From assembly GCA_020845895.1 (NCBI GenBank), contig JADLEX010000047.1:13073-77072 (forward strand): DNA of 64,000 nt, read 5' to 3'. Positions 815-59,431 of this stretch are shown here, piece after piece. The notes under the pieces were generated by a model. That model was not told the origin of the DNA and did no database searches. It saw only the letters and a program-made list of their open reading frames with translations. The translations under genes were made by a program, and so were the position numbers. This DNA comes from Deltaproteobacteria bacterium. GTDB lineage: Bacteria; Lernaellota; Lernaellaia; JACKCT01. Numbering within the stretch: position 1 is the first letter of the stretch; the number at the start of each line of letters is the position of its first letter.

Positions 815-2761
815 ATGGGGAGAGGTTTTGTCATGGGGGATGATCGAAAACGTAGGCGTCGTTTCGGTCGCGCGCTGGTCGCCGCGGTTGTCACTTTCGT
901 TGTCCTGGCGGCATTCGCCCCGGCCGCTTTCGCCCAGACGCAGGATCAGCGCACGCTCTTCGTGATCGGCAACATCAACTCGGCCTTCGGCACGTTCCCG
1001 CTGCGGGCCTACAACATCGTCGACGACACGATCGTTCTCGCGAACACCTGGTACCCGGCCGCGCGCGACGACGGCGCGGTGGGTATCGGCGTCGATCCCG
1101 TCAACGCGCACATGTTCGTCACGTACGAGAACCTCGACCTCACGGTCGGCGTGGTGGACGTGTACGACGCCACCGACGCCACGCCGCTCGGACAGATTTC
1201 GCTCGTCGGCACCACGAATCTCGCGGGCATCGACGTGCACGCGGGGCGCGGGGTCATGTACGTCGTCGACCGCTGCATGCCGACCATCTACACCTTTGAC
1301 ACGGACACGTTCCAGCCGATCGACTCGTGGGACATGCCGACCAGCAGTTGCGCCTATGGCATCGACGTGATCGACGAGGAAGACCTGATCTTCGTCGCCG
1401 ACGCGTCCAACACGGTGCACTGGTATGATATCGACACCCACGAAGAGGTCGGCAGCGCCACGCTCACGTACCCCTCCGCGTCCATCGCCGTCGACTATTC
1501 CGAGGGCTACCCGGTCATTTACACCTCATGCGTCGATGGACAGTCTGAAATCGCGCCGCCCGGCGACGTGCCTTATCTGGTGAAGTACAACACCAACACC
1601 GACACGCAGACCACGTATTATCTCGGCGCGAATCAGTCGGGGCGCGGCATCGGTCTCGACGTCGTCAATCGCCGGGCGTACATCGCGGCGGGCGTCGTGG
1701 GCGGCCTCGCGAGCGGCACCATCCGCGTCGTGGACATGGACACGATGACGGAGCTGTCGCGTTCGCAGCTCCCCGGCGGCTTCGGCACGCCGTGGAGCCC
1801 GACGGATCTCGAAACCACGTGGCTCGCGTTCGGCAGCAACATCCAGAAGACCTCGCCGACGCATCCCGACGGCGAGATTGAGGTTGGCCAGCAGATCACG
1901 TTCGAGATCACCATCGAGAACCGCTACAGCCGGCCGATCCACGTATTACCGTTCAAGGACGATTACGACCCCGCGCACCTGACCTTCGTGTCGGCTACAC
2001 CGACCCCCGACAACGTGGACACGGTCAACGGCGTGGTCGAGTGGAATGATCTGATTCCGTCCGTCGGCCACGATATGGAGTTCGAGGAAACGTACACCGT
2101 CACGGTCGTGTTCGAGGCGAATCCGCCCGACTCGTGCGAGACGTGGGTGGACGGCACCAACACCGGCATCATGTCCGGCGCGGAAAACGACCGCGGCGAC
2201 GTACTCGATGAGTCCTCGGGCTCGATGGCTTATCGCATCTGGTGCACCTGCCAGAACGACGAGGAGTGTGACAACGGCCTGTGGTGCGACGGCGAAGAGC
2301 AGTGTCTCAACCGCGAGTGCGTGTCGCTCGGCAACCCGTGCCCCATCGACGACGGCATCTTCTGCAACGGCGAGGAGACGCTGGTGTGCGTGGAGGAGAC
2401 GCAGGAATGCGGCCACTCCGGCGACCCGTGCGCCGATGACGGCAACCTGTGCAACGGCGTCGAGTCGTGCAACGAAGAAGCAGGCCAGTGCGAAAACACC
2501 GGCGACCCGTGCACGGACGACGGCGAGTATTGCAACGGCGACGAGTTCTGTGACCCGACGAAGGTGGATTGCCGGCACAGTGGCAATCCCTGCGACGAGG
2601 ACGAGACGTGTAACGAGCCGACGGACGAGTGTCTTGCGCCCGGCGAGGACCCCGGCCTCGACAAGGAGCCCGGCGGCGACAAGGACGAAGACGCCGGCTG
2701 GCCCGAGGGTCAGGTGACCGGCGGTTGCTGCGGCTGCGGCGACAACGGCAAGGACGACTGA
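815..2761 (+). CDS. secreted surface protein: signal peptide, LVIVD/YVTN-like beta-propeller repeats, DUF11-like domain, tandem Cys-rich (CNG..E.C) repeats, acidic Gly/Cys C-terminal tail
   Basis: 648-aa ORF; N-terminal basic-hydrophobic-AFAQ signal peptide; repeated VxxxD/YVVD blocks; ITFEITIEN...LTFVSATP segment resembles DUF11; C-terminal repeats C.DG.(F/L)CNG.E.C x6; ends GGCCGCGDNGKDD; paralog of 4212..5771. Confidence 0.7.
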   Translation: MGRGFVMGDDRKRRRRFGRALVAAVVTFVVLAAFAPAAFAQTQDQRTLFVIGNINSAFGTFPLRAYNIVDDTIVLANTWYPAARDDGAVGIGVDPVNAHMFVTYENLDLTVGVVDVYDATDATPLGQISLVGTTNLAGIDVHAGRGVMYVVDRCMPTIYTFDTDTFQPIDSWDMPTSSCAYGIDVIDEEDLIFVADASNTVHWYDIDTHEEVGSATLTYPSASIAVDYSEGYPVIYTSCVDGQSEIAPPGDVPYLVKYNTNTDTQTTYYLGANQSGRGIGLDVVNRRAYIAAGVVGGLASGTIRVVDMDTMTELSRSQLPGGFGTPWSPTDLETTWLAFGSNIQKTSPTHPDGEIEVGQQITFEITIENRYSRPIHVLPFKDDYDPAHLTFVSATPTPDNVDTVNGVVEWNDLIPSVGHDMEFEETYTVTVVFEANPPDSCETWVDGTNTGIMSGAENDRGDVLDESSGSMAYRIWCTCQNDEECDNGLWCDGEEQCLNRECVSLGNPCPIDDGIFCNGEETLVCVEETQECGHSGDPCADDGNLCNGVESCNEEAGQCENTGDPCTDDGEYCNGDEFCDPTKVDCRHSGNPCDEDETCNEPTDECLAPGEDPGLDKEPGGDKDEDAGWPEGQVTGGCCGCGDNGKDD

Positions 2762-2887: not shown

Positions 2888-3994
2888 ATGAATTTTGCGA
2901 AGGTTTCCGTTTGGCGATTCGCGATGCTCGCGACCTTGCTCGCGTCCGTGACGATCGGTTGCGGCGACGATGACGACGACGATTCCGAGCCCGGCGATGA
3001 CGACGCTGCCGACGACGATGTGTCCGATGACGATACGGAAGACGACGACACGGGGGACGACGACACGGCGGACGACGATACGACAGATGACGACACCGGC
3101 GACGACGACACGGCGGACGACGATACCGACGACGACACGGCCGACGACGACACGGCCGATGACGACACGACCGACGACGACACCGGTGACGACGACACGC
3201 AGATCGCGTGCGAAGACCTGATCACACCCGAACTCGTCGAGCCCGAGGTTGTGGAAATTCCCGCGGGGACGTTCACGCAGGGCAGCCCCGAGGAAGAACT
3301 CGGCCACTCGAGTCTGGAAGAACAGCGCGAGGTCACGATCTCGAAGGCATTCTACATGATGAAGTATGAGGTCACGCAGTCGCTGTGGCTCGCGGCGATG
3401 GGCGAGATCAATCCCTACCAGGTGGAGTGCGGCGACAACTATCCGGTCACGGTGGTGCGTTGGATGGACGCGGTCGAATTCGCGAACCTGCTTTCGGTCG
3501 AATTCGGCTACACCGAGTGCTACGAGATCGGCGAGACGAGCGCGACGTGGGACACCGACTGCACCGGGTTTCGCCTGCCCACCGAGGCCGAGTGGGAATA
3601 CGCCGCGCGCGCGGGCACCGACACGGCGTTTTACAACGGTGACATCGTCGATCCCGGCTGCGCCGACGAGGGGTTGCTGGACATCGCATGGTACTGCGGC
3701 GCGGGATACTCCGCGCATGAGGTCGGCCTGAAGGATCCCAACGCGTGGGGCCTGTACGACATGCTGGGCAACGCTTGGGAGTGGGCGTTCGACGGCTACG
3801 ATGCCGAGCCGTACAATTACGACCCCGCGGGCCCGGTGACCGACCCCGTCGCGCCGGGCACGTTGGCGCGCATCTATCGCGGAGGTTCGATGTACGCTTA
3901 CGCGGCCAACTGCCGCGCGGCGTATCGGCGGCTCGCGCTATCGACCTACATGGACGAGGACAACGGCGTGCGGCTCGCGCGCAACAAGCCGTAG
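2888..3994 (+). CDS. lipoprotein with poly-Asp/Thr linker and FGE-sulfatase (SUMF1/DUF323) family catalytic domain
   Basis: ATG at 2888 follows in-frame upstream ORF start at 2843; lipobox TIGC; ~75-aa (DDDTx)n linker; C-terminal domain has RWMDAVEF..., GFRLPTEAEWEYAARAG, GNAWEW, RGGS motifs characteristic of formylglycine-generating-enzyme fold. Confidence 0.75.
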   Translation: MNFAKVSVWRFAMLATLLASVTIGCGDDDDDDSEPGDDDAADDDVSDDDTEDDDTGDDDTADDDTTDDDTGDDDTADDDTDDDTADDDTADDDTTDDDTGDDDTQIACEDLITPELVEPEVVEIPAGTFTQGSPEEELGHSSLEEQREVTISKAFYMMKYEVTQSLWLAAMGEINPYQVECGDNYPVTVVRWMDAVEFANLLSVEFGYTECYEIGETSATWDTDCTGFRLPTEAEWEYAARAGTDTAFYNGDIVDPGCADEGLLDIAWYCGAGYSAHEVGLKDPNAWGLYDMLGNAWEWAFDGYDAEPYNYDPAGPVTDPVAPGTLARIYRGGSMYAYAANCRAAYRRLALSTYMDEDNGVRLARNKP

Positions 3995-4211: not shown

Positions 4212-5771
4212 ATGAATCGTTTTCGCATGTTCGTGACGGTGATGGCGGCGTTGGCCCTGGTTGCGTCGTTCGCGGCAACGGCCGGGGCGCAGAGCGTTCC
4301 TTCGGAGCCGCGCGTCGTCTACGCGCTGGGCAACGTCAACGCCACCTTCGCATATCCCGTCAATGTCTTTCTGATCTGGGACGACGAACTTATTCCCGCC
4401 GAAACTCTGTTGATCGATCCGGAGGACGAATTCGAGCCCGTGGGAATCACCGTCGATTCGCTGAACAAGCGTGTATTCATCGCGCCGGAACACGGCGATG
4501 CACTCGGCGTGCTCAACGCGGAAAACGGTGAATTGCTTTCTCCCTTCACGATCGAGAGTGCGGGCGGGCTCGCGGGTCTGGAAGTCGTGGAGAATCAGGG
4601 CGACTTCTACGTCGCCGACCTGACGGACTACGACATGTTCGTTTACGATCTCGAAACGCTCGATCGCATCGATGAGTGGGTCGTTTCCGGCGGCTCCGCG
4701 GCGTTCGGCGTCGCGGTCTCGAGCGGACTGCTTTATCTCGGCAACGGCTCGAACGTCGTGCCGATCTATAACGTCTACACGCACGAGCAGGTCGGCGATT
4801 TCGAGATCGCCGACATGGCGCTCGCCATCGACGTGTGGGAGATGGACCCGCCGCGCGTCTTCACCTCGCCGGGGTTCACCACCAACTTCGTCACGCGATA
4901 CGACCTGGGGACGGGCGTGGAGACGCAGCTCGATCTCGGCACGATCGCCAAGGGACTCGCGGTCAACTCCGACGCCGGACTCCTCTATCAGCTCGCCGGT
5001 TCGGGCATCCTGCCGGAGACAAGCCTTCGCGTGATCGACGCCGAAACGCTCACCGAGCTGTCGAGCCACCCGCTCGGCGACGGCACATGGAGCCCGACCG
5101 ACGTCAAGATCGGCAGCAACTCCTTCGGCCGCCGCGTGGCGGTCGATCTGATCGGCGTGACCGAGCGCGTCTTCGATTCCGGTCAGACGGTGACATTCGA
5201 GATCATCGTGACGAACGATGCGGATTCGGCGATCGAAACGATGCCCTTCGAGGTGCTGTTCCATTCGGACACGCTGACCTACGTGAGCGCGACGCCGGCT
5301 TCCGACGCGTCCGATCCCGCCGGTTCGGTGACGTGGACCGACATCACCGCGAACCAGGGCGAGAACCTCGCGCCGGGCGAGAGCTTCACGATCATCGTGG
5401 AATTCACCGCACAGGTCCCGCCGGGCTGCGCGGGCAGCGAAGGCGACATGGTGATCGCGCGGATGGTGGGAGCGTCGCTCGGCGGCGGCGGCACCGTCGA
5501 GGACTCGGCGGGCAGCACGCGCTTCGCGGTGCTGTGTCCCTGCGCCGACAGCGCGGTTTGCGACGACGGCCTCTTCTGCACGGGTGTCGAGATCTGCGAC
5601 TCCACGAACCAGTGCGAGGACGGCGACCAACCGTGCGAGATCGACGAGATCTGCAACGAGGAGACCGACTCGTGCGATCCGCTTCCCGGTGCTGATGACG
5701 ACGACGACCTGCCCGAGCCCGAGGCCGACGACGACGACGATTCGTCCGGCCAGGGCGGATGCGGGTGCTGA
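4212..5771 (+). CDS. secreted surface protein, paralog of 815..2761 (beta-propeller repeats, DUF11-like domain, Cys-rich repeats, poly-Asp stretch, C-terminal GGCGC)
   Basis: 519-aa ORF with signal peptide (MNRFRMFVTVMAALALVASFAATAGAQ); YALGNVNATFA vs FVIGNINSAFGTF parallels paralog; TFEIIVTND...LTYVSATP DUF11-like; Cys-rich repeats; ends DDDDDSSGQGGCGC; the opposite-strand 635-aa ORF 4074..5981 is treated as a shadow. Confidence 0.7.
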   Translation: MNRFRMFVTVMAALALVASFAATAGAQSVPSEPRVVYALGNVNATFAYPVNVFLIWDDELIPAETLLIDPEDEFEPVGITVDSLNKRVFIAPEHGDALGVLNAENGELLSPFTIESAGGLAGLEVVENQGDFYVADLTDYDMFVYDLETLDRIDEWVVSGGSAAFGVAVSSGLLYLGNGSNVVPIYNVYTHEQVGDFEIADMALAIDVWEMDPPRVFTSPGFTTNFVTRYDLGTGVETQLDLGTIAKGLAVNSDAGLLYQLAGSGILPETSLRVIDAETLTELSSHPLGDGTWSPTDVKIGSNSFGRRVAVDLIGVTERVFDSGQTVTFEIIVTNDADSAIETMPFEVLFHSDTLTYVSATPASDASDPAGSVTWTDITANQGENLAPGESFTIIVEFTAQVPPGCAGSEGDMVIARMVGASLGGGGTVEDSAGSTRFAVLCPCADSAVCDDGLFCTGVEICDSTNQCEDGDQPCEIDEICNEETDSCDPLPGADDDDDLPEPEADDDDDSSGQGGCGC

Positions 5772-13016: not shown

Positions 13017-13197
13017 GCGGGGACACGCACCGCTGCGCGCTGCATGTCCCCGACTTCGCTCGGCACCCCTCTCGGGAACACGGGGACACGCACCGCTGCG
13101 CGTTGCATGTCCCCGACTTCGCTCGGCACCCCTCTCCCGCCTGGCGGGAGAGGGGCAGGGGTGAGGGCCGCGCGGGCAGGGGTGAGGGCCGCGCCGA
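13017..13197. repeat. intergenic repeat cluster (family B): 63-bp tandem duplication, perfect 13-bp inverted repeat CCCCTCTCCCGCC/GGCGGGAGAGGGG, and CAGGGGTGAGGGCCGCG x2
   Basis: read directly between qor-like gene stop and pyrD start; related hairpin at 42281..42340. Confidence 0.6.
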
Positions 13198-17610: not shown

Positions 17611-19170
17611 TCAATTCGCGGCGGCGGCCTTGCGCGGAAATTTCGCCAGCCAGTAGCGTTCCCAGCGCACGCCGTGGGCGCGGCCCATGTCCGTACGTCG
17701 ATACCCCGCCTCGCCAAGCCATGCGCGGGCGAGCGCCGCGCCTCGGTCCCCGCCGTCGCGCGTGCCGTGGCTTTCGACGATCCAAACCTCGTGAGCGCCG
17801 CCGAGAGACGCGAGCAACGCATCGCGCGCCGACGCCGGCATGATCGCGGCCGATTCGCGCGGCAGCGGGTCGAATCCCGGCAGGTCGGTCGGCAAGGCGA
17901 TCGCGGCGTCCGACCGTTTCGAATAAACGAGGAACGCGTCCTTGACGAAGTGCGCGACCACCAGCGCCTTCGCGTCCGACCGCGCGGTTCGGTCGAATCG
18001 ACGCACGACCTCGCGCAGGTCTTCGCGGCCCTCGCCGCGGGTGATCGCACCCATCAGCAGTTGCGCCGCGAGCACAATCATCACGAGCGCGTTTCGCATC
18101 GCGCCCTCACCGAGTGACGAGATCGCCATCAGAAACAACGCCAGGATCGGCGCGGCGAGCAGCGCGAAGTAGTGCGTGGCGATGAAGACGCAGAACACGA
18201 AATGTGCCGCGAGCGCCGTAGCGATCGTGACGGCGACGACCGCGAGCGGAAATCCCGCGCCCATGCGCCCCCCGCTGTCCATGAGCGCGAATCCACCCAA
18301 ATCCGCGCCCCGGCGCCGCGCCGCTCGCCAGGCGCCCCAGACGATCGCTCCCGCGCCGACCACGGCGCTCGCCGCGCCGAGCCGCGCGCTCGCGAGATAG
18401 GCGCTTTTCATGAGACCCGAGACGGGGCTGTGCTGCACGAAAATCTGGATGGACCGGCGCGCAATCTGGTAAGGCGTCGCGTCCCAGCGCACCCATCCGG
18501 AATCGGGGCCGAGGCGCGCGAACTGCCCCACCGCCGCCACGAGCCAGGGCGCGAACAGCGCGAGCGCGGCGACATTCGCAATCGCAATTGACCGCGCGGT
18601 CATGCGCGACCGACGCCACGCCATCGCGGCGATAGCGAGCTGCGCGATGCACAGATACCCCGCGTAGTAGAACGTGTAGAGCCCAAGCGCGTTCGCGAGC
18701 GCGAGCGCCGCCATGCGTTTGCGGCACTCGGGGCGACGGATCACTTCCCACAACGCGAGAAAAGCCGCCGCGCCCAGCATTGCCGACAGGCTGTAGCTTC
18801 GCGCGAGGCGCGACATCGAGATCAGCGAGGGATCGAGAAACGAGACGAGCACGCCGAGCAGCGCGCCCGCCTCGCCCGCGATGACGAATCCGACGAGGGC
18901 GAACAAGGCGACGAGGATCGTCCCCGCCAACACGGGAACGATTCGGACGCGTCCCTCGATCGTCATCCCCAGATCGAACGAGGCGACAAGACGTTCAAGC
19001 GCGGGGAAGAGCGGCGGGTGGACGTCGTCCGCCAGGCTCGGCGCGTCAACGGCCAGGGCATAACGGGCGACGTAGAGTTCGTCGGTGTTCAGCCCGGGTT
19101 GGCTGAGCAGCGCCACGCGGGCCACCGCCGCCAACACGATCACCGCCGCCACAAGCGCCCGCACGCGCAT
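17611..19170 (-). CDS. GT-C fold membrane glycosyltransferase, family 39/83-like (PMT/ArnT-type)
   Basis: >=10 TM helices; first periplasmic loop carries DE motif (NTDELYVARYA); start MRVRALVAAV at 19170; paralogs at 55180..56808 and 60530..62128. Confidence 0.6.
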   Translation of the reverse strand: MRVRALVAAVIVLAAVARVALLSQPGLNTDELYVARYALAVDAPSLADDVHPPLFPALERLVASFDLGMTIEGRVRIVPVLAGTILVALFALVGFVIAGEAGALLGVLVSFLDPSLISMSRLARSYSLSAMLGAAAFLALWEVIRRPECRKRMAALALANALGLYTFYYAGYLCIAQLAIAAMAWRRSRMTARSIAIANVAALALFAPWLVAAVGQFARLGPDSGWVRWDATPYQIARRSIQIFVQHSPVSGLMKSAYLASARLGAASAVVGAGAIVWGAWRAARRRGADLGGFALMDSGGRMGAGFPLAVVAVTIATALAAHFVFCVFIATHYFALLAAPILALFLMAISSLGEGAMRNALVMIVLAAQLLMGAITRGEGREDLREVVRRFDRTARSDAKALVVAHFVKDAFLVYSKRSDAAIALPTDLPGFDPLPRESAAIMPASARDALLASLGGAHEVWIVESHGTRDGGDRGAALARAWLGEAGYRRTDMGRAHGVRWERYWLAKFPRKAAAAN

Positions 19171-19426
19171 TTTCGCCCCGTCCCGTTTCGCTTTGAAGCC
19201 CAAAGATGGAAGGCGACCGCCAGTATGAAACGTCCACCAATCGGCACGCAAGCGGCGTGCGTCGATCCGGCGGTCCGCGCCACAAATCGACGGGCGGATT
19301 GCGCCGCAAATCGGCAGGAAAGGAAACCCTGAAAAATTTTAGGAAGCGATAAATATCTTGACGAATTCGTCGCCATGGAATAAAAGCCCATTCCGAAGCG
19401 TGGCTCTGAGCCCGCTTTGAGTCGGA

Positions 19427-20810: not shown

Positions 20811-22256
20811 GTGACGGAGGTGTCCGCCGTGCGTGAGCGCGCCCGTGCGTCTTTTTCCCGGTTTCTGACGGTCGTTCTGATCGTCACAGCGTTCGGTTGG
20901 GCCGACCCCGCCATCGCGCAGAACGCCCCGGCGGCGGCGACCGACGAGGCCAAACTCGGCGCGCTGACGCTCGCCGAAGCGATCAAATTGGCCGTCGCGA
21001 ATGGCGAGTCCGCCAAGATCGCCGAAGCGAACACCGAGGCTGCGCGGCTCACGGTGCGCGAGAGCGAGGCCGGCGCGTATCCGCAGGTCACCGGTATCGT
21101 CGGCTACACCTACAACATCAACCAGCCCAAGCAGGAGATGGAGTTCGCCGAGGCGTTCAATCCGCTGATGCAGGCCATGGGCCTGCCGCCGATGGAGAAC
21201 CCCGAGATCCCGCTTGTGTACCGTCACGACTGGGCGATGACGCTCGACGTGCAGCAGACGCTCGCCGTCGGACGCGTGTCGAAGGCGATCCGCCTCGCGA
21301 AGATGTACGAGGAGTCGAGCCGCCTCGGCGCGGACGTGACGAATCGCGACACCGCGCTCGAAACCGCGCGGGCGTATTACGACGTGGTGCTCGCCGAGGA
21401 ATTTCTGAAAGTCTCGCAGATGTTCCTCACGCTTTCGCAAAACCACCACGACGACACGAAGCGCAAGTACGAGGCGGGACTCAAGAGCGAGTTCGACCTG
21501 CTTCAGGCGCAGGCCGATCTCGCCGCCGCCGCGCCGAACGTGACCGACATGCAACAACGCGTCGCCCTCGCCAAGAAAAATCTGCTGCGTCTGGTGGGCA
21601 TGCCGCTCGATCGCGAAGTCACTTGCGCCGAGAGCTTTTCGGAGGAAACGGTTCAGACGGCGACCGACGCATGGCGCGAGGAGGCGTTCTCCGAGCGCGA
21701 GGAACTGCGCATGTTGACCCTCGGTCGGCAGATGAAGCGCACTGAGAGCAATTTGTACTTCTCGAACATGCTTCCCGCGTTTTCCGCGAACATGGCGTAC
21801 ACCTACGCGGGACAGAGCATCACGGAAGAAAACGATTTCTGGCCCGTCGAGGATGACTGGAACACGTTCTGGTCGGTGGGCATCCAGATGCAGTGGCCGA
21901 TCTTCGACGGCCTGGGCAACTGGCAACGCGGTCGCCGCGCGCGCGTCGAGGAGCGCATCGCCGCTCTCAACGCCGCCCGCACGGCGAAAGGCATCGATCT
22001 GGAGATCGAACAGGTTTCGACGACGTTGCGCACCGCCGGAGAAAAGCTCGCCGCGCGCAAGGAGGCGATGCAGGTCGCCGACCGCGCCTTCCATCTGGCG
22101 AGCGTGCGTTACGAAAACGGCCTCGGCACCGCGCTCGAAAAGATGGACGCCAAGGCCGTGTGGACGCAGGCCCGCGTCGCATACCTGCAAACGCTCTACG
22201 AACTGAACGTTGCGCGCTACCAGCTCGCGCACGCGCTCGGAAAGGAAACGTGGTGA
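20811..22256 (+). CDS. TolC-family outer membrane efflux protein
   Basis: signal peptide, two tandem helical/beta-barrel repeats with Q/A/L-rich coiled segments; first gene of efflux operon; exact start uncertain (GTG 20829 alternative). Confidence 0.8.
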   Translation: MTEVSAVRERARASFSRFLTVVLIVTAFGWADPAIAQNAPAAATDEAKLGALTLAEAIKLAVANGESAKIAEANTEAARLTVRESEAGAYPQVTGIVGYTYNINQPKQEMEFAEAFNPLMQAMGLPPMENPEIPLVYRHDWAMTLDVQQTLAVGRVSKAIRLAKMYEESSRLGADVTNRDTALETARAYYDVVLAEEFLKVSQMFLTLSQNHHDDTKRKYEAGLKSEFDLLQAQADLAAAAPNVTDMQQRVALAKKNLLRLVGMPLDREVTCAESFSEETVQTATDAWREEAFSEREELRMLTLGRQMKRTESNLYFSNMLPAFSANMAYTYAGQSITEENDFWPVEDDWNTFWSVGIQMQWPIFDGLGNWQRGRRARVEERIAALNAARTAKGIDLEIEQVSTTLRTAGEKLAARKEAMQVADRAFHLASVRYENGLGTALEKMDAKAVWTQARVAYLQTLYELNVARYQLAHALGKETW

Positions 22257-27399: not shown

Positions 27400-29216
27400 A
27401 AAATTTGAATCCGGAACGGAATCATTCATCGCGGCCGGGACGACGATTGCGCCCCGTTGCCGTTGCGCTGCTGTTCGCCGCGTTTTTTGCGACCGCGTGC
27501 CGGCAGGACCCGGCGGCGCAACTCGTCGGCGACATGTACGGACTGATCGAGGAGTTCTACATCAGCGCCTCGTCGCCCGCGGACCTGACGGCGAATGCAT
27601 TGCAGGGACTGGAGCGCTCGCTCGCGGCGAAAGCGTATCGCGAGAAGCTGGAGAAGGAGAAAGCGGAGAAGGACGCGGCGAAGGAGGCGGGGGAAGCCGC
27701 GCCATCGCCGGAACCTGAGACATCGCCCTCGCCCGCGCCGGCGGAGACGCCGCCCAGTCCCCATGGCCCGAACGCGGACCCGTCGGTCGGCGTGCCCGAA
27801 GAGCCGCCGCCCGAAGGCTCGCTCGACCCCTACGCGTTGCCCGAGGACGAGAACGGCGATCTTCCGCCAGGGCCGCTGCGCGTCGAGATCGACGGCCGTC
27901 GCGCGGTGCTGGCCATCGCGAACGAGACGCTCGCCATCGACATTCCCGAAGACCGCCGCGGCGCGGTGGACGCGTTCCTGCGCGCCTACGTTTTCGTGCG
28001 CGGAAAGCTCGACGACGGCGATCCCGAGGAGGAGCTGTTCAACGACGCGCTCGGCTTCATGACGTTCCGCCTCGATCCGCACTCACAGTACATGGCCGCG
28101 AGCCAATACACGCGACTGCGCGACGAAACGTCGGGGCATTTCGGCGGCGTGGGTATCGAAGTCGGCATGCGCTCCGATCAACTCACCGTCATCGCGCCGA
28201 TCCCGGGCACGCCCGCCGCCAACGCCGGTCTGAAGCCGATGGACCGCATCGTTAAGGTGGACGGCGTCGAAACGCTCGGCCTGTCGCTCAACGAGGCGGT
28301 GGATATGATCCGCGGCGAGATCGGCACGAGCGTCACGCTCACCATGAAGCGCGCCGACGATCCGCCCTTCGAGGTGAAGCTTCTGCGAAGCGACATTCCC
28401 GTGAACACGATCAAGGCGGAACGCGTCGAAGGCGACATCGCGTGGATCCGGGTCTATTCGTTCAATCAAAACACCGGCGCGGATCTGCGTAAGGCGCTCG
28501 GGGAATTCGATCGCAAAGCCCCGCCGCTGCGCGGCGTCATTCTCGACATGCGCAACAATCCGGGCGGCCTGCTCGACCAGGCGGTCGAGGTGGCCGACGA
28601 ATTCCTCTCGGCCGGCATCATCGTCAACACCATCGGCCGTGGTCGCCTGCGCGAAACCGAAAAATTCGCGACGATGCCCGGAGCCCGCGGCAACACGCCC
28701 GTCGTCGTGCTCATCAACAGCGTTTCGGCGAGCGGCACCGAAATCGTCGCCGGCGCGTTGCAGGACCACAAACGTGCGCTCATCCTCGGTACGCGCAGCT
28801 TCGGCAAGGGCAGCGTGCAGTCGATCTTCAAGCTTCGCGAGGACGCGGGGCTGCGTCTCACCACCGCGCTCTACTACACCCCCTCGGGCCGGTCGATTCA
28901 GGCGCAGGGCATCGTGCCCGACGTGCTGGTGAAACTCTCGCCCGAAGAAGAGCGCATGCTCGCGATGTACTGGTCCGAATCGGCGCTCTCGGGTCACCTC
29001 AAGAGCCAGGCCACGACCGAGAGCGAGGCCGACGTGGTGTGCGAGGCCGAGAAAATGCGCGCGCACTACCTCAAGACGGGCGCCATCGTCGAGGACGAGA
29101 ACTTTCCCGAAAAAAGCGACTGGCTGCTCGTCTTCGCCCGCGAAATTCTCGACGGCGACGACCGGTCGATCCCGGCCATGACCGAGCGCGCACGCGGGAT
29201 CGTGAACGGACTTTAA
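27396..29216 (+). CDS. ctpA: S41-family carboxyl-terminal processing protease with PDZ domain
   Basis: PDZ block GIEVG...GTPAANAGLKPMDRIVKVDG; S41 catalytic region VILDMRNNPGGLL...SASGTEIVAGALQD...SFGKGSVQ. Confidence 0.85.
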   Translation: MKNLNPERNHSSRPGRRLRPVAVALLFAAFFATACRQDPAAQLVGDMYGLIEEFYISASSPADLTANALQGLERSLAAKAYREKLEKEKAEKDAAKEAGEAAPSPEPETSPSPAPAETPPSPHGPNADPSVGVPEEPPPEGSLDPYALPEDENGDLPPGPLRVEIDGRRAVLAIANETLAIDIPEDRRGAVDAFLRAYVFVRGKLDDGDPEEELFNDALGFMTFRLDPHSQYMAASQYTRLRDETSGHFGGVGIEVGMRSDQLTVIAPIPGTPAANAGLKPMDRIVKVDGVETLGLSLNEAVDMIRGEIGTSVTLTMKRADDPPFEVKLLRSDIPVNTIKAERVEGDIAWIRVYSFNQNTGADLRKALGEFDRKAPPLRGVILDMRNNPGGLLDQAVEVADEFLSAGIIVNTIGRGRLRETEKFATMPGARGNTPVVVLINSVSASGTEIVAGALQDHKRALILGTRSFGKGSVQSIFKLREDAGLRLTTALYYTPSGRSIQAQGIVPDVLVKLSPEEERMLAMYWSESALSGHLKSQATTESEADVVCEAEKMRAHYLKTGAIVEDENFPEKSDWLLVFAREILDGDDRSIPAMTERARGIVNGL

Positions 29217-29866: not shown

Positions 29867-30226
29867 GTGATGAAACGCTCGTTCCTTGGGGTCCTGTCGG
29901 TCTGCGTCGTTGCGCTCTCGATCGGCGTCTTCGCGTGCGATGGCGGCGACGGCGACGGCGAGACGTCGTGGGATCAGCTTTCGGGTCAGGATGACGCGAT
30001 CGATCAGTGCATCGCGCTGTGCGAATACGCGCTCGCCGACGAGCTGGATCTCTCCGACGGCCCGTGCCTGTCGGAAGAGGTGGTCGAGGACTGGGTGTGC
30101 GACGTGGCGCACAATCCGCGCACCGACGTGGATGACCTCGACACGAATCAGTGCGACAACTTCGGCGAGGGCGCGGCGCACTTCGTCGAGGTGACGCCCG
30201 ATTGCGAATTCATCAAGGCCGGTTGA
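29867..30226 (+). CDS. small acidic Cys-rich lipoprotein
   Basis: lipobox GVFAC followed by DGGDGDGE; 10 Cys in 119 aa. Confidence 0.5.
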   Translation: MMKRSFLGVLSVCVVALSIGVFACDGGDGDGETSWDQLSGQDDAIDQCIALCEYALADELDLSDGPCLSEEVVEDWVCDVAHNPRTDVDDLDTNQCDNFGEGAAHFVEVTPDCEFIKAG

Positions 30227-30274: not shown

Positions 30275-31942
30275 ATGCTTCGAAATGACCTCACGTCGAT
30301 TCTCGCAGTCCTCGCGTTCGCGTGTTTCGCGGCGGGATGCGGCGGCGGTTCGTCGTCGGATTCCGGCGACGGTGCTGACGGCGACGCAGTCGATGACGAT
30401 TCGGTTACCGATGACGACGCGGCCGACGACGACGACACGTCGGTCGATGACGATACGACGGATGACGATTCATCCGATGACGATACGACGGACGATGACA
30501 CGTCGGATGATGACGCCGACGACGACACGTCCGACGACGACGACGACGATACGGGGGATGATGACACGACACCGTGCCCCGACGCGGATGGCGATGGATA
30601 CACCGACGCGGCCTGCGGCGGCGAGGATTGCAACGACGCCGATGACGCGGTGAATCCCGACGCGCTCGATGTGTGCGGCGACGACATCGACAATGACTGC
30701 GACGACACGGTCGACAATCCTGAAAATCCGCCGGTGGACCTGCCGGGATTCCTGCTTGGCGTGTGCGGCAGCGGCGGCGATCCCAAGGTGCTGTTGCCGG
30801 AACTGGGTATCGCATGGCACCGGCCCACGTTTTCGTGGATCTCGTTCGAACCGGAAGTCACCGATCCCGATCTGACGATGGCCGAGATCGAAGCCGATCC
30901 CACGATCATCGACGATTACATCGACGCGAAGAACTGGACGGGGATCGACGCGAACGCGAAATCCATGCTCGATGCGGGACTGACGCTCATGCCCATCGTC
31001 GGTCACGGCTACACGACCACGCTGCCCTATATCGATGGTGATCGCGCAACGCCGGATCGACTCGGCCGCGAGCAATACCTGGCGCAGCAATACCGCGAGG
31101 TGCGCGCGCTGGTGGAGCGCTACGACGGCGACGGCTACAAGGACGCGACCGACATCGTCATCAAATTCTGGCAGACCGAAAACGAACTGAATCAGGCGAT
31201 GCTGACGGGCATCTACGGCTGGCGCTCACCGGAATGGTTCGACGCGTTCGCGTCGGCGTGGGGCGATTGGGATTTCATCACCGAGCTGCTCGCCACCCTT
31301 TACCGCGCCGTCCACGACGCCGATCCCGACGCGATCACCACGCAGAACCTGCACACCGACATCCATCCGAACTACTCGGCGCTACTGGGCCAGCCGTCGT
31401 GGATCGAGGCCGCGACCCTGTGGCGCGATTACGTCGACCTCATGGGCTTCGATGCCTACCCCAACTATTACGTGGCCGAGCCGGTGATGGGCGAGGTGGT
31501 GGGTGAGCGGGCCGAGACGATCGCCGAGGCGTCGTGCGGTAAGCCGGTGATCGCGATGGAGATCGGCTATCCCAAGGGACCGGTCGAATTGGGCTTTTCG
31601 GCCGAGTCGCAGGCCGATTTCATCGACGAGGCATTTCACGCGGCTTACGACGCCGGCGTGGTCGGGTACTTTCATTTTGGGTTGCAAAGCGCCGATGCCG
31701 ACAGCGTGGACATCACGCCGGACGACATCGCGGCCCTCGCGGCGATCGGCCCGGATTTCACCGACGGACGCATCCTGCCCGTGCTCGCGTACCTGATCGC
31801 ACACCCCGAGGTGATCGATCCGCATTTCCTCGATGTTCTTCAGAGCGTCGAGACCTACTGGGGCGTCGTCCACAACGACGGCACACATCAACCGGGCTTT
31901 GACGTTCTCTCCGATATCGCCGACGAGATCGCCGGGCGCTAA
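30275..31942 (+). CDS. lipoprotein: poly-Asp/Ser/Thr linker, MopE-like putative metal-binding Cys motif, TIM-barrel glycoside-hydrolase-like domain
   Basis: lipobox FAAGCGGG; ~75-aa D-rich linker; CPDADGDGYTDAACGGEDCNDADDAVNPDALDVCGDDIDNDCDD; WQTENELN resembles GH catalytic NE(L/P) motif. Confidence 0.55.
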   Translation: MLRNDLTSILAVLAFACFAAGCGGGSSSDSGDGADGDAVDDDSVTDDDAADDDDTSVDDDTTDDDSSDDDTTDDDTSDDDADDDTSDDDDDDTGDDDTTPCPDADGDGYTDAACGGEDCNDADDAVNPDALDVCGDDIDNDCDDTVDNPENPPVDLPGFLLGVCGSGGDPKVLLPELGIAWHRPTFSWISFEPEVTDPDLTMAEIEADPTIIDDYIDAKNWTGIDANAKSMLDAGLTLMPIVGHGYTTTLPYIDGDRATPDRLGREQYLAQQYREVRALVERYDGDGYKDATDIVIKFWQTENELNQAMLTGIYGWRSPEWFDAFASAWGDWDFITELLATLYRAVHDADPDAITTQNLHTDIHPNYSALLGQPSWIEAATLWRDYVDLMGFDAYPNYYVAEPVMGEVVGERAETIAEASCGKPVIAMEIGYPKGPVELGFSAESQADFIDEAFHAAYDAGVVGYFHFGLQSADADSVDITPDDIAALAAIGPDFTDGRILPVLAYLIAHPEVIDPHFLDVLQSVETYWGVVHNDGTHQPGFDVLSDIADEIAGR

Positions 31943-32103: not shown

Positions 32104-32892
32104 ATGCGCGAGTGGATGTTGGTGCTGCCGGCGATTTGCACTGCGCTGTTCCTGCTCAGCGGATGCGGCGACGATGATGACGACAACGACACGGCTCCCT
32201 CCGATGACGATGTCGATGACGACGCCGATGATGACGCGGACGACGATGCCGATGACGACGTCGACGACGATGTCGATGACGATGCGGACGACGACTCGGC
32301 CTTCCCCGATCCCTTCACGGAAGACTTCGAGAGTTACGACTTGGGGACAACGCCCAACGGTCCGTGGTCGCCGGAGTATATCGAAGGCGCCCTCGCCTTC
32401 ACTATCGTCGAGGCCGTGACCAAGGACGGATCCGGCCACGTTGTCGAATTCGACGATCCGGACGGATCTTCCTGGGGCGAGCTGCACGCGAATTTCCCCG
32501 AACAGACGAGCATGTTCACGCTGTCGTGGGATTGGTACTGGCTGTCGGGAGAAATGGCCTGCGTATCGGCGACGCACTCGGGCGGCGGCGGTTGGACCAG
32601 CCTGTTCGACGTGTGTCTCAATATCGCGCCCGACGCACACGTCGAGGCGATCAACGGCGAAGGACAGTGGATCGGCTGCGGCCTGACCGCCCTTGAAACG
32701 TGGCAGACGGTCAGCATGGTTGTGGACTCGTCCTCCATGACCTACTCGGTGCTGATCGACGGCGCGCCGAGCAGTTGCACCGACTTCGACTGGTACATGC
32801 AGAGCGGCCCCGTCGACAGCTTTTCGCTGATGGCGATCGGCGTTTACGACGGTCTTGCGCATTTCGACAACATAGCGCTCACGCACGACTGA
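32104..32892 (+). CDS. lipoprotein with poly-Asp linker and domain of unknown function
   Basis: lipobox LLSGC then DDDDDND...(DDDAx)n; AT-rich promoter-like region upstream. Confidence 0.55.
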   Translation: MREWMLVLPAICTALFLLSGCGDDDDDNDTAPSDDDVDDDADDDADDDADDDVDDDVDDDADDDSAFPDPFTEDFESYDLGTTPNGPWSPEYIEGALAFTIVEAVTKDGSGHVVEFDDPDGSSWGELHANFPEQTSMFTLSWDWYWLSGEMACVSATHSGGGGWTSLFDVCLNIAPDAHVEAINGEGQWIGCGLTALETWQTVSMVVDSSSMTYSVLIDGAPSSCTDFDWYMQSGPVDSFSLMAIGVYDGLAHFDNIALTHD

Positions 32893-32905: not shown

Positions 32906-33436
32906 ATGATGAAACCGTTGGCATTGGCCGCGGCGGCCTTCATGGTTCTCGGAATCGTGCTCGCGGGGTTTGCCACCGCGCCGGAGGACGCCGGCGACTG
33001 CCCCGACGTCAACAGCCTCTGCTTCGACAAGGTCATGTACCTCTACGTCGAGTGCAATCTCTTTCTATACGACCCGGAGTCGGGAGAGCCGATCGACGTG
33101 GAGGATCTCGTCGCCGATTGTCAGGCGGGGACGAACGACTGGGTCAACGCCGTCATGAACTGCATCGCGGTTTTCTGCGGCGATGGGTGCGAGAAAGTCG
33201 GCGAGTGCATCGAGGAGGTGATTGGCGACGATGACGAAACCGCCGATGACGACGCCACCGATGACGACACCGACGACGACTGGCTGAATGACGACGAAAC
33301 GGACGACGATGGCGACGACGACTCCGACGACCTGTGGGACGACGATGACGAAGGCGACGACGACACGACCGCGCCGACCCCCGCGCCGAAGTCGGACGAC
33401 GATGATGACGACGATCCCTATGCCTGGTGCGCGTAA
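32906..33436 (+). CDS. secreted Cys-rich protein with poly-Asp C-terminal region
   Basis: signal peptide; 9 Cys in N-terminal half; C-terminal DDDETADDDATDDDTDDD... Confidence 0.5.
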   Translation: MMKPLALAAAAFMVLGIVLAGFATAPEDAGDCPDVNSLCFDKVMYLYVECNLFLYDPESGEPIDVEDLVADCQAGTNDWVNAVMNCIAVFCGDGCEKVGECIEEVIGDDDETADDDATDDDTDDDWLNDDETDDDGDDDSDDLWDDDDEGDDDTTAPTPAPKSDDDDDDDPYAWCA

Positions 33437-35831: not shown

Positions 35832-36365
35832 CTATTCGAGATCGTGAACCGCGAGCGCTGACTGGAAGCCGGCGTTGCTTCGCAGGATCGACCCCGCGTA
35901 CGCGCCCGCCTCGGTGAGAAAACTCACGTAGTACGCTTTCTGATTATCCGAGGGATCGAGTTCGCCCGACCACAGGTCGGTCTTCGTGACCTCGAAGGGT
36001 TCGCGAATGTACGCCGTGACGGCGGTGTCCGTGCCCGTGTAAGGCCGATCGAGATCGTACAGCGCAATGAGTTCATCGACGGTCGGAAGCCGCCAGTCGG
36101 ACTTGTCCGCCTCGTCGAGACCCTCGGCCCAATCCCGCGCGTCGTCCCACGTGAGCGCCGCGCCATTGTCCTGCGTCTTCCAAAGCAGGCATTCGCAGGT
36201 CATCGTGCCGTCGCCGTTATCCTCGCAGCCGTCCACGCACTCGGTTTGTTCTTCCTCGGCCGCGTCGTCGTCATCGTCGTCATCGCCGCCGCCGCCACAT
36301 CCGATGGCGATCGTCGTCGCCGTCGCGAATACAAAAAGAATGCCGAACAGCGTGCGCATCGTCAC
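35832..36365 (-). CDS. DUF1566 (Lcl C-terminal-like) lipoprotein with poly-Asp linker
   Basis: lipobox IAIGCGGGGDDDDDDD; LWKTQDNGAALTWDDARDWAEGL...SDWRLPTVDELIALY matches DUF1566 core. Confidence 0.6.
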   Translation of the reverse strand: MTMRTLFGILFVFATATTIAIGCGGGGDDDDDDDAAEEEQTECVDGCEDNGDGTMTCECLLWKTQDNGAALTWDDARDWAEGLDEADKSDWRLPTVDELIALYDLDRPYTGTDTAVTAYIREPFEVTKTDLWSGELDPSDNQKAYYVSFLTEAGAYAGSILRSNAGFQSALAVHDLE

Positions 36366-36514: not shown

Positions 36515-38146
36515 ATGAAGAAAATCCGTCTCACCCCCGAACGGCGCGAGGCCCTGCGCGAGTCGTGGCCTGCGCTGGTCACGGCGCTGCTGTACGTTCT
36601 CGCGTTTCCCTCGGCGGGGTTGTGGCCGCTCGCCTTCGTGGCGCTTGCGCCCACGCTGGCGATCGCGCAGGGCGCGAAGACGACCGAACGCACGTGGTGG
36701 TTCGGTTTTGTCGCGGGGTTCGTCGGCAATGCGGGCAAGCTCTATTGGCTTGTCTACACCATCAATCATTACGGGCACTTCCCGCTGCCCGCGGCGCTCG
36801 TCGTGTTCTCGCTATTGTGCGGATTCCTCGGCGTCTTCTGGGGCTACACGTTTTGGCTCACCCGGCGCGTCGGCGAGCGCGTCGCCTTGCCGCTCTCCGT
36901 CGTCTTTCCTCTCGCATGGATGACGCAGGAGTGGGTGCTGACGTGGTTCCTCACGGGCTTTCCGTGGTCGATGATCGGCCATGCGCTCGTGGGTTGGCTG
37001 CCGATGGCGCAGGCCGCGGATGTCATCGGCGGCCTCGGGCTTTCGTTCCCCGTCGCCCTTGGCAACGCGGTGATCTACGAAATCTGGAAATTCGCCCGCG
37101 AACGCCAATCGCGGCCGGATCGCCGATTCCCCGTCGGCGAATTCGTCACCTTCGCGATGTGGGTCGTCGCGCTGGCCGTTTACGGCTTCCTGCGCATCCC
37201 CGCCATCGATCAGCAGATGGCGTCGGGACGCGCAATTCGCGTCGGGATGACGCAGGGAAACATCGACCAGAACGAGAAGTGGAACCCCGGCAATCAGGAT
37301 CGCACCTTCGAGACCTACCTCGCGCAGGCGAAGAAGACCGTTGTGGACGGCGCGTCGCTCGTCCTGATGCCCGAAACCGCGCTGCCCTACTGGCAGACGC
37401 AGGGCCGCGCGTTGAAATCCGATCTGCGCGAATTCGTGGACGGCGTCGGCGCGTGGACGCTCATCGCGGTGCCGACGAAGGTGGAGAATCCCGACGATCC
37501 GGAGTGGCCCTACAAGTACAACTCGGTGGTGCTGGCGTCGCCCGACGGCGATTTGTCGGACTGGTACAACAAGCACCGTCTCGTGCCTTTCGGCGAGTAC
37601 CTGCCGCTGAAAAAACTCTCCGTGCCGTTGGTGAAGTGGCTGCGCTCAATCCCGGCGCTGTCCAAGCTGCGCCTCAGCGCGGGATTTTACCCCGGCGAGG
37701 AGTACATCGTCTTTCCGCACCCCGAAGGCCGCTTCGGCATGGCGATCTGCTACGAGATCATCTACCCGGGCATCGTGCGCAAGGTCGTGAACCTCGGCAC
37801 CGACTTCATGGTGACGATCACCAACGACGCGTGGTTCGGCGACACCAGCGCGCCGCATCAACACTGGGATCAGGTGCGCATGCGCGCCATCGAGCACCGC
37901 AAATATTTCGCGCGCTCGGCGAACACGGGCATCTCGGGCGTGATCGACGCGGCGGGCCGCACCAAGTCCGCGACCGGAACCTACGTGCCCGCCGCCGTGA
38001 CCGACGACGTGCGTACGATGAATGTGCAAACGATCTACTCGCGCCTCGGCGATTGGTTTCAATGGGTGTGCGTGTTAGCATTCCTGGCGTTTTCGGCCAT
38101 CGCGTATGCGCGGGCTCGCCGCGCGCGCGCCGCCGACGGAGTCTGA
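36515..38146 (+). CDS. lnt: apolipoprotein N-acyltransferase
   Basis: N-terminal multi-TM region + CN-hydrolase domain with catalytic E...K...C (ICYEIIYPG). Confidence 0.9.
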   Translation: MKKIRLTPERREALRESWPALVTALLYVLAFPSAGLWPLAFVALAPTLAIAQGAKTTERTWWFGFVAGFVGNAGKLYWLVYTINHYGHFPLPAALVVFSLLCGFLGVFWGYTFWLTRRVGERVALPLSVVFPLAWMTQEWVLTWFLTGFPWSMIGHALVGWLPMAQAADVIGGLGLSFPVALGNAVIYEIWKFARERQSRPDRRFPVGEFVTFAMWVVALAVYGFLRIPAIDQQMASGRAIRVGMTQGNIDQNEKWNPGNQDRTFETYLAQAKKTVVDGASLVLMPETALPYWQTQGRALKSDLREFVDGVGAWTLIAVPTKVENPDDPEWPYKYNSVVLASPDGDLSDWYNKHRLVPFGEYLPLKKLSVPLVKWLRSIPALSKLRLSAGFYPGEEYIVFPHPEGRFGMAICYEIIYPGIVRKVVNLGTDFMVTITNDAWFGDTSAPHQHWDQVRMRAIEHRKYFARSANTGISGVIDAAGRTKSATGTYVPAAVTDDVRTMNVQTIYSRLGDWFQWVCVLAFLAFSAIAYARARRARAADGV

Positions 38147-54948: not shown

Positions 54949-55158
54949 AGGAGAGCGAAGCGAAGGGCCTTGCGTGAGCTGGTACAAGATCCTTCGCTTC
55001 GCTCAGTATGACAGCGGAAATGAGCGCTCGGAGTGACCGCCACGGATTGCGGCCCTGAGCCCGCTTCTTGTCACCCAGAGCCGCTTCTTTTCACCCAGAG
55101 CCGCTTCTTGTCACCCTGAGCCGCTTCTTGTCACCCTGAGCGAAGCGAAGGGTCTGGC
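54949..55158. repeat. REP/MITE-like element family A, expanded copy: inverted GAGCGAAGCGAAGG / CCTTCGCTTCGCTC arms plus 4 tandem 20-bp units AGCCGCTTCTTGTCACCC(A/T)G
   Basis: read directly after dctM stop; shares GATCCTTCGCTTCGCTCAG..ATGACAG and CTTGTCACCCTGAGCG.AGCGAAGGGTCTG ends with 4078..4168. Confidence 0.6.
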
Positions 55159-58235: not shown

Positions 58236-58259
58236 CACACTCACAGAACGAAGGAGGAA

Positions 58260-59405: not shown

Positions 59406-59431
59406 CAAGCGGTCTAAGACAGGAGAAGATC

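Follow-up and report, generated by a model that had tools for sequence, protein, structure and literature searches.

An anchor-proximal poly-aspartate module in lipoproteins of an uncultured bacterium: a candidate polyanionic tether and possible sorting signal

Introduction

What purpose might be served by a long, repetitive run of aspartate placed directly behind the cysteine at which a lipoprotein is expected to be lipidated? The question is raised by a stretch of 64,000 nucleotides (the window, as the whole of the DNA analysed here is called) from an uncultured 'Deltaproteobacteria bacterium' (GenBank assembly GCA_020845895.1, contig JADLEX010000047.1, positions 13,073 to 77,072 of the forward strand). 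Translation of the window reveals six genes in which a lipobox cysteine is followed by an acidic tract, and a seventh, marginal case (29870-30226). A preliminary description of this DNA had reported a recurring lipobox cysteine with a poly-Asp linker in at least seven genes; the architecture is real and six of the genes are clear members, the weakly acidic FAC-DGGDGDGE sequence of gene 29870 being the one that stays marginal.

We lean, by a narrow measure, towards reading the module as an anchor-proximal polyanionic tether whose membrane-near head may double as a sorting signal. Routes by which lipoproteins reach the cell surface are known in few lineages, and if the head were a sorting signal it would carry the concept of acidic export signals to lineages other than Bacteroidota and allow the surface proteins of a large group of uncultured polymer-degrading bacteria to be predicted from sequence by a simple rule. 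The long tails, built of DDDxx units, would exemplify a natural polyelectrolyte tether with a possible use in surface display, and would bear on cell-surface charge and cation handling.

Lipoproteins of the window with and without the acidic module

Lipoproteins were recognized by signal peptides in which a basic n-region is followed by a hydrophobic core free of charges and by the pattern [LVI][ASTVIG][GAS]C, with the cysteine at about residue 15-35. All seven N-termini conform, that of gene 44114 being atypical in its Pro at position -3. The most extreme linker belongs to gene 2888 (2888-3994, plus strand), encoding a lipoprotein of the FGE-sulfatase fold: the signal peptide (2888-2959) ends in the lipobox TIGC (Cys codon 2960-2962), and the linker (2963-3196) consists of the head GDDDDDD and a (DDDxx)n tail with 14 DDD units, altogether 78 residues with 48 Asp and a net charge of -50. 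The span 2963-3198, to which the preliminary description had drawn attention, is the DNA coding for this linker, a 15-nt tandem repeat. The best solved relative of the passenger domain is the Treponema denticola variable protein 2y3c, and lipoproteins of the PorK/GldK type are related too.

Three further genes carry long linkers. Gene 30275 (30275-31942, plus strand) encodes a glycoside hydrolase (GH)-like lipoprotein in which AAGC (Cys codon 30338-30340) is followed by GGGSSSDSGDG and a (DDDxx)n tail (linker 30341-30571, ~77 residues), then by a Cys-rich DADGDGY...CDD stretch resembling the 'putative metal-binding motif' PF11617 (an entry listed for a number of orthologues though not for the product of gene 30275), and finally by a TIM-barrel domain like the glycoside hydrolases of clan GH-A, for which the top Foldseek matches are the GH53 galactanase 2gft and the exopolysaccharide hydrolase PslG (5bx9). 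In gene 32104 (32104-32892, plus strand) the lipobox LSGC (Cys codon 32164-32166) precedes a linker of 48 residues and charge -31 (32167-32310), composed of GDDDDDND and eight DDD units separated by a single Ala or Val (DDDA/DDDV, a 12-nt period); its passenger has no relative in Pfam, NCBIfam or the PDB. Gene 44114 (44114-46102, minus strand), encoding a TIGR03767-like metallophosphoesterase, has PAGC (Cys codon 46049-46051) followed by GERDSS and then eight DDD units in a (DDDxx)n arrangement (linker 45896-46048, 51 residues, net charge -28).

Two genes possess the head only. The Lcl_C (DUF1566) lipoprotein gene 35832 (35832-36359, minus strand) has the lipobox IGC (Cys codon 36297-36299) followed by GGGGDDDDDDD (36264-36296), with an acidic extension beyond the head down to 36210, and the small Cys-rich lipoprotein gene 59432 (59432-59722, plus strand) has IGC followed by DSGDDDDDD (59483-59509) and lies inside an island of 50-52% GC. 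The marginal gene 29870 (29870-30226, plus strand), also small and Cys-rich and with no Pfam or NCBIfam match, offers a short G/D head only (DGGDGDGE after the lipobox FAC, 29939-29962). Written by their first letters, the window heads are CGDD and CGGG (two genes each), CDSG, CDGG and CGER. Three passenger domains in the window have no database match of any kind.

Two lipoproteins of the window that the preliminary description had left aside provide a contrast, having no acidic tract: an S41 peptidase with a PDZ domain (27447-29216, plus strand), whose cysteine is followed by RQDPAAQ, and a TRAP-transporter T-component, TAtT (51233-52138, plus strand), with SKLVQ in the same place. Both are typical periplasmic-type proteins. 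The passengers of the module look environment-facing, including the GH-A barrel resembling PslG and galactanase and, in relatives, PA14, GH114 and penicillin amidase domains.

Anatomy and predicted structure of the module

To describe the module beyond single genes, 35 non-identical long linkers were pooled from the window, related loci and homologues. Two parts can be distinguished: a head of one to four Gly/Ser followed by an unbroken run of 5-11 Asp and, after a short break, a tail of the form (DDD-x1-3)n. Window heads have one to four Gly/Ser and then five to seven Asp, and the tails of four window genes amount to 8-15 DDD-x(1-3) units, which brings the module to at most 79 residues. Head and tail taken together, the module spans ~10-100 residues with net charges of -7 to -50. 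The first run of at least three Asp starts at position +3 in 13 of the 35 linkers, and the first Asp run reaches a length of five or more in 19; of the 239 later runs, 202 consist of just three Asp and 11 of five or more. Spacers between the runs comprise one to three residues in 210 of 239 cases and are drawn mainly from Ala (140), Thr (124), Gly (79), Ser (62) and Val (39), with no Lys or Arg at all. No Pfam or NCBIfam model exists for the module, and the literature searched contained no account of poly-Asp or aspartate-rich lipoprotein linkers with this architecture.

The linkers are predicted to be intrinsically disordered. In AlphaFold2 models built with family alignments, residues 24-105 of the gene 2888 product have a predicted local distance difference test score (pLDDT) of ~47-53 and no secondary structure, with the domain from ~110 onwards exceeding 90; for gene 30275 the corresponding values are below 50 without secondary structure for residues 24-131 and above 90 for 150-555. 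Over both linkers the scores range from about 40 to 53. The suggestion of a spacer or tether made in the preliminary description fits with pLDDT values below about 50, with spacers devoid of Lys and Arg, and with a location that is always beside a terminal, anchor-type cysteine. The same disorder, together with the existence of some linkers that have no head, would suit a pure spacer, a disordered linker for Lol passage or periplasmic reach in which the sequence, poly-D head included, carries no sorting information; disordered linkers required for targeting are common among outer-membrane lipoproteins of Escherichia coli (10.1101/2021.01.05.425367). However, head-only genes with 9-11 module residues would make poor spacers, the first Asp run is systematically unlike the later ones (19 of 35 first runs but 11 of 239 later runs have five or more Asp), and a generic linker would require neither so strict an avoidance of Lys/Arg nor a fixed DDD unit. 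We therefore keep the pure spacer as a lesser possibility, which deserves some weight.

The charge density invites a second explanation, namely that cation binding is the main function and that DDD chelates Ca2+, Mg2+ or other metals for storage, bridging of lipopolysaccharide (LPS) phosphates or control of mineral nucleation. The density of carboxylates is indeed extreme (up to 48 Asp in 78 residues), the DDD unit is fixed in the large majority of later runs (202/239), and a Cys-rich PF11617-like stretch often adjoins the linker, PF11617 being recorded for many of the proteins retrieved. Metal binding by the linkers is plausible. As the main function it is improbable, as it leaves the strict anchor-side position on many unrelated passengers unexplained, and head-only versions offer few sites.

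The Thr and Ser residues that recur after Asp led to the earlier proposal of O-glycosylation. D-[ST]-[AILVMT] is the O-glycosylation sequon of Bacteroidota, and of the 29 D-[ST] sites that the linkers of the window contain, 13 fit it. The window also contains two genes for PMT_2-like membrane glycosyltransferases of the GT-C type (55180-56808, minus strand; 60530-62128, plus strand), with marginal scores of 27-29 bits. As a general rule for the module the proposal fails, since several linkers are spaced by Ala or Val only (for instance gene 32104, the repeats of which are almost free of Ser and Thr), and Ala is the commonest spacer over the 35 linkers, Thr and Ser together making up about one third; moreover, enzymes of the PMT_2 type are common and have many functions. 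A scaffold of glycosylation sites would thus be a most improbable account of the module. A third GT-C-like open reading frame (ORF; 17611-19251, minus strand) was recognized by eye only and has no Pfam match; the GT-C-like genes might relate to glycosylation of the envelope or of proteins.

Specificity of the module and selection at the protein level

Could the tracts reflect the composition of the proteome or of the DNA? A six-frame scan for 12-residue windows with at least six Asp found eight strong D-rich tracts in the window; six start no more than six residues from a lipobox cysteine, and the remaining two are C-terminal tails of secreted proteins. In a crude set of 51 window genes, a D-rich tract is present in 6 of 9 lipoproteins, while among the 42 genes of other kinds 3 have one (Fisher p = 3.3e-4). 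The amino-acid content of the non-lipoprotein genes of the window is unremarkable (D 6.3%, E 5.8%, K 2.7%, R 7.7%; K+R 10.4%), which rules out a generally acidic proteome. The preliminary description had named two ways in which its observation might come to nothing, a general compositional bias and removal of the linker together with the signal peptide. The first is answered by these figures; as for the second, the linkers follow the lipobox cysteine, so that signal peptidase II would not remove them.

The same lipobox detector, applied to 80 clpX-neighbourhood loci from diverse bacteria (1.45 Mb, loci among the matches listed for ClpX in species-representative genomes), found no D-linker among 77 lipobox ORFs. 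Four or more clustered DDD runs are present in 69 of the retrieved proteins: 58 of these carry the runs within 30 residues after a signal peptide and Cys; four nearly fit this N-terminal rule, and four others have the runs directly before a C-terminal signal of Cys, transmembrane (TM) helix and Arg cluster. A homology search with the bare linker returned three matches, all lipobox proteins, composition filters having removed nearly everything, and a pattern scan of metagenomes (CGDDDDDD, DDDTTDDD) matched at least 600 stretches, of which four loci were confirmed.

At the level of DNA, 74 runs of at least three GAY codons were counted; 58 of them fall within a gene in the frame that reads Asp, and the other 16 are all just three units long. 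The GAC:GAT ratio in linkers (91:36) is close to that in the remainder of the same genes (152:81). The confinement of long GAY runs to the Asp frame and the ordinary codon mix indicate that the tract is selected as protein and is not a by-product of GAC slippage. A repeat artefact driven by GC content is ruled out as well, as the module also occurs at 50-57% GC.

These observations also bear on the idea that the tracts are neutral or contingency repeats, slippage products of GAC that are functionless or serve rapid length switching. The tandem periodicity is real: Tandem Repeats Finder reports 13.9 copies at a 15-nt period, with 76% matches, for the linker of gene 2888, and periods of 12-15 nt for the other long linkers. 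Likewise, close orthologues of gene 2888, with domains that are 86-94% identical and ungapped, have linkers of 79, 78, 71 and 69 residues, so that indels are found in linkers while the domains have none. However, the repeats are imperfect, the longest perfect ones being (GAC)5 and 34 nt at period 15 (~2.3 units), long GAY tracts occur neither in other frames nor in non-coding DNA, and the position and character of the module are kept over deep divergence and different GC contents. The linkers thus do not qualify as a contingency locus, for which a long, perfect and fast-slipping tandem repeat would be expected. In addition, all repeat units are multiples of three and all length changes are in frame, which makes on/off switching impossible. 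We consider the neutral or contingency account highly unlikely. The expectation of hypervariable length is weakly supported: there are indels among close orthologues and, at deeper divergence in a second family, a range from ~25 to more than 100 residues, yet the repeats are imperfect. From these sequences, the linkers of close orthologues are best described as indel-prone, drifting by one or two units, unlike a contingency locus.

Conservation of the module in relatives

Two of the lipoprotein families could be followed into relatives. Among the best 120 homologues of the gene 2888 product, 48 have lipobox-like N-termini and 17 have D-linkers, the latter from organisms labelled 'Deltaproteobacteria bacterium', 'Myxococcota bacterium' or simply 'bacterium'; in orthologues at 48-60% identity, 67-98 residues still precede the domain. 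In the family of gene 30275, orthologues at 41-94% identity retain the module. Several of its closest orthologues (P0125-P0130, P0134 and P0135) have kept the lipobox and a D-linker of ~25 to more than 100 residues, three other close orthologues (P0131, P0136, P0137) have little or no D-linker, and in more distant homologues, at 34-54% identity and one of which is labelled Candidatus Methylomirabilis, the linker is short and not acidic or the signal peptide is of the ordinary kind.

The wider occurrence in related loci (numbered L081 to L083 and L085 to L088) follows the same line. D-linkers are found in 5 of 7 lipobox ORFs of L081 and, by a strict rule, in 2 of 5 of L082 (3 by eye), and further D-linker genes are present in L083, L085 and L086, at 53-57% GC, and in L087 and L088, at 64-72% GC. 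The presence of the module in genomes of 53-72% GC, as well as in the 50-52% GC island of the window, makes it independent of base composition. As judged by sequence comparison, the module is conserved over deep divergence, down to orthologues of about 40-50% identity. A separate observation concerns L084, a metagenome contig of 70% GC, where a lipoprotein resembling substrate-binding proteins (L084:16412-16684) has a cysteine followed directly by GDDDDDDGGGGSG; a short poly-D head after a lipobox is thus found in a different high-GC genome too.

A mirror-image arrangement at C-termini

The two D-rich tracts of the window that are not attached to a lipobox stand at the opposite end of secreted proteins. 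The product of the gene at 4212-5771 (plus strand) is secreted by way of a type I signal peptide; it matches DUF11 weakly, is rich in Cys in its C-terminal region and ends with two runs of five Asp (within 5673-5741) followed by SSGQ-GGCGC and the stop codon (GGCGC at 5754-5768). Its paralogue at 815-2761 (plus strand) ends in WPEGQVTGGCCGCGDNGKDD (2720-2758) before the stop, an end shared by the orthologue L081:7989-9917. Five secreted proteins from five assemblies, the product of 4212-5771 included, have the end (DDDxx)n-D5-9-x(2-5)-GCGC-stop without a helix or Arg cluster, and an acidic tract followed by GGCGC-stop or by ...VTGGCCGC(x0-7)-stop is found in secreted proteins that share the weak DUF11 match and the Cys-rich region, namely 4212-5771, 815-2761, L081:1333-2961, L082:4063-5520 (minus strand), L086:537-2363 (minus strand) and L087:11147-12730. 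A third arrangement of an Asp run by a terminal cysteine is seen in a small secreted Cys-rich protein (32906-33436, plus strand), in which a D-repeat tract interrupted by Trp and Leu fills the C-terminal half (tail 33218-33433) and the end is DDDDDDDPYAWCA before the stop.

The GCGC ends are genuine protein ends, as the stop codons differ between the proteins and terminators follow. Read-through or a frameshift into a longer protein was considered and is ruled out by the differing stops, the terminators and the lack of a TM helix in any frame. Among the 150 best matches of the 4212-5771 product in 1.84 billion cluster representatives, 24 have a CxC end; these include most of the full-length homologues, in which an acidic tract stands before GGCGC or ...WPEGxVTGGCCGC. 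In eight representatives the end consists of Cys, TM helix and basic residues, similar to MYXO-CTERM. ORFs of at least 150 residues with a CxC end number 7 of 469 in loci of the lineage as opposed to 1 of 2435 in controls.

In relatives, the acidic repeats are connected with MYXO-CTERM itself. In the four retrieved proteins (of 69) with C-terminal D-repeats, these directly precede CSC, CGC or CNC, a TM helix and an Arg cluster, and the scores against the MYXO-CTERM model TIGR03901 are 24.5 and 22.3 bits (cutoff 20), 18.3 and no match; the related metagenomic proteins P0196 and P0198 qualify as MYXO-CTERM. The C-terminal ends of the window proteins match neither TIGR03901 nor another NCBIfam model, and no TM helix or Arg cluster follows GGCGC-stop or GGCCGCGDNGKDD-stop in any frame. 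Taken together, the sequences place the acidic module next to an anchor-type terminal cysteine at either end of the protein.

Two further observations may be added. One tiny protein (P0122, 109 residues, from an ENA metagenome) has no passenger and is built solely from a signal peptide with lipobox, a linker of the form (DDDTx)n and, at the C-terminus, a Cys motif with TM helix and RRRR, which amounts to a tether flanked by two anchor signals. Moreover, lipoboxes of relatives (L081, L083, L087, P0005, P0007, P0047, P0073) often read G-C-G-C-G-DDDD, with a second cysteine two residues on; either of the two might be the acylated one, and the other might stay free, for example for a disulfide with C-terminal CGC proteins.

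Proposed role of the module

Our reading builds on the observed position, composition, predicted disorder, protein-level selection and conservation of the module. We suggest that module lipoproteins would be exported by Sec and processed in the manner of signal peptidase II in a bacterium with an outer membrane. The tail would then probably act as a polyanionic stand-off tether linking the passenger to its lipid anchor, a part of the reading in which we have reasonable confidence: repulsion of charges within the chain, and from the anionic membrane or LPS surface, would hold the passenger away from the membrane, with an expected extension of ~10 nm for ~80 residues compared to a contour length of ~28 nm, and divalent cations would probably tune this extension. 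For the head we propose more tentatively, and with somewhat less than even confidence, a second role as a sorting determinant, in which acidic or G/D-rich residues at +2 to +5 might direct sorting as they do in Bacteroidota and in lipoproteins that depend on type II secretion.

Several points weigh against this combined reading of tether and sorting signal. The argument for the sorting role of the head is by analogy throughout, and the analogy can be turned around, as GDD and GGG in Pseudomonas signal retention at the inner membrane, and the same head could mark inner-membrane instead of surface proteins. The poly-D head is missing from some linkers (44114, 30275, P0006 and P0057), and the residue at +2 is Gly, not the Ser, Lys or Gln of the Bacteroidota lipoprotein export signal (LES). 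The strict DDD unit is not obviously needed by a simple spacer. The contrast with periplasmic proteins is not absolute, since an S41 peptidase from another metagenome (P0206) has a D-linker. Finally, no type II secretion or Lol genes were seen among the window ORFs, only part of which were scanned against Pfam.

Retention at the inner membrane needs to be considered as an explanation in its own right: the G/D head would be a Lol-avoidance signal and the long tail would reach the peptidoglycan or the outer membrane. It draws on the reported retention signals (PMC12802150), which are GDD and GGG for Pseudomonas and, for E. coli, an Asp at +2, and tails of 50-80 residues could span a periplasm. 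However, the module also precedes MYXO-CTERM signals, the clients of which reach the cell surface, and its passengers resemble enzymes acting on extracellular polymers, so that we judge this explanation unlikely.

If the N- and C-terminal observations are combined with the proposal of a tether that may also sort, a broader hypothesis can be framed, in which a single code of poly-Asp by a terminal cysteine marks lipid-anchored surface proteins, at either end, in a Myxococcota-like uncultured group. The code would stand after the lipobox cysteine, before MYXO-CTERM, and before an undescribed C-terminal GGCGC/GGCCGC-COOH signal without a TM helix. We regard this as speculative and rather doubtful. 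If it is true, acidic signals for the surface export of lipoproteins would extend beyond the Bacteroidota, and the C-terminal signals for anchoring or attachment would gain a new type.

Host and genomic context

The gene 2888 product is 100% identical to MCC6157562.1 at NCBI, from a metagenome-assembled genome labelled 'Deltaproteobacteria bacterium'. Exact matching of window proteins against an index of contigs gave no match, although the retrieved protein P0001 equals the gene 2888 product, and the literature searched contained no mention of the assembly accessions. ClpX shows 66-70% identity in the best species-representative matches listed, mostly from Geobacteraceae, Myxococcales, 'Deltaproteobacteria' and Binatia, and relatives of the host show Myxococcota-typical features, MYXO-CTERM among them. 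In other bacteria the third acyl chain of lipoproteins is added by the apolipoprotein N-acyltransferase Lnt. The window encodes an Lnt with LNT_N and CN_hydrolase domains (36515-38146, plus strand), so that its lipoproteins would be triacylated; Lgt and LspA are not among the window genes. Lnt and an OEP/TolC-like outer-membrane factor (20811-22256) indicate that the host has an outer membrane. An LpxC-like ORF (62513-63493) was recognized by eye only.

Base composition in the window is 64-67% GC except for one 2.7-kb island (~57300-60000) with 50-52% GC against a background of 65%, which was probably acquired horizontally. It encodes three secreted proteins: one of no assigned family, one resembling metalloproteases with the motif HExxHxxGxxH (58260-59405), and the small lipoprotein with a poly-D head (59432-59722). 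Intergenic tandem repeats occur just upstream of the GT-C gene 60530 (60085-60455, 41-nt x2.8 and 33-nt x3) and elsewhere at 55061-55141 (20-nt x4.1) and 13018-13136 (63-nt x1.9, 98% matches).

Comparison with known systems

A first parallel to the head is the LES of Bacteroidota, C-S-(D/E)2-4 or K-(D/E)2, which marks surface hydrolases and binding proteins (Lauber 2016, PMC5080379; Valguarnera 2018, PMC6222051). In B. fragilis its consensus is SDDDD, functional when placed after the cysteine, and Asp at +3/+4 of SusG is essential (PMC5080379; PMC6222051). As in the LES, there is a small residue at +2 and consecutive Asp from +3, right behind the lipidated cysteine; the LES-type combination of a small, polar or basic residue at +2/+3 with two or more D/E around +3 to +5 is present in CGDDDDDD, CGDDDDDN and CDSGDDDDDD. 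Furthermore, periplasm-facing lipoproteins of Bacteroidota have no signal, and the passengers in the window are split in a similar way. On the other hand, the host lineage is not Bacteroidota, and the Asp run is longer (5-11) and usually followed by tens of DDDxx units.

A second parallel is provided by lipoproteins of the T2SS (type II secretion)/GspN pathway, which in Acinetobacter baumannii carry GGG or ND(N/D) at P2'-P4' and in the other species examined, Burkholderia pseudomallei included, a G/D hybrid, and by the Lol-avoidance signals of Pseudomonas (GGG, GDD) and the Asp at +2 for inner-membrane retention in E. coli (PMC12802150). The heads CGDD, CGGG, CDSG and CDGG match the P2'-P4' motifs letter for letter, while CGER does not, and the type II system is also the route of MYXO-CTERM proteins, on which the same acidic module is found in relatives. 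The T2SS/GspN motifs, however, comprise 3-7 residues and have no long repeat tail.

The surface lipoproteins of Borrelia have 'tether' regions. In addition, half of E. coli's outer-membrane lipoproteins have disordered N-terminal linkers needed for correct targeting (El Rayes et al., 10.1101/2021.01.05.425367). In both cases, as here, a disordered segment lies between the lipidated cysteine or sorting residues and the globular domain, and many lipoproteins have one. The E. coli linkers differ in being of mixed composition, whereas those described here are nearly pure, periodic poly-Asp with a far higher charge and have a C-terminal mirror version.

MYXO-CTERM, finally, consists of a GCGC motif, a TM helix and an Arg cluster (TIGR03901; PMC11980579, 10.1101/2023.06.07.544157). 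Its cysteine is predicted to be lipidated, possibly by Lgt, with myxosortase cutting just after it and the T2SS carrying the protein to the surface (PMC11980579). The likeness is that D-repeats of relatives directly precede the GCGC-type cysteine, that secreted proteins of the window share GGCGC/GGCCGC, and that lipoboxes of relatives are often GCGC. However, the window proteins stop after the Cys motif, without TM helix or Arg cluster, and so are not members, and the lipoproteins with the N-terminal module take the ordinary lipobox route.

The module thus resembles lipoprotein tethers as well as acidic or G/D sorting motifs, but it is not filed here under any of these families, because the host is not a member of the Bacteroidota, a dependence on type II secretion would be conjecture, and the C-terminal version departs from MYXO-CTERM in two features. 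The most novel lead to emerge from the comparison is offered by the C-terminal GGC(C)GC-COOH ends, which suggest that the MYXO-CTERM system has a relative not described before.

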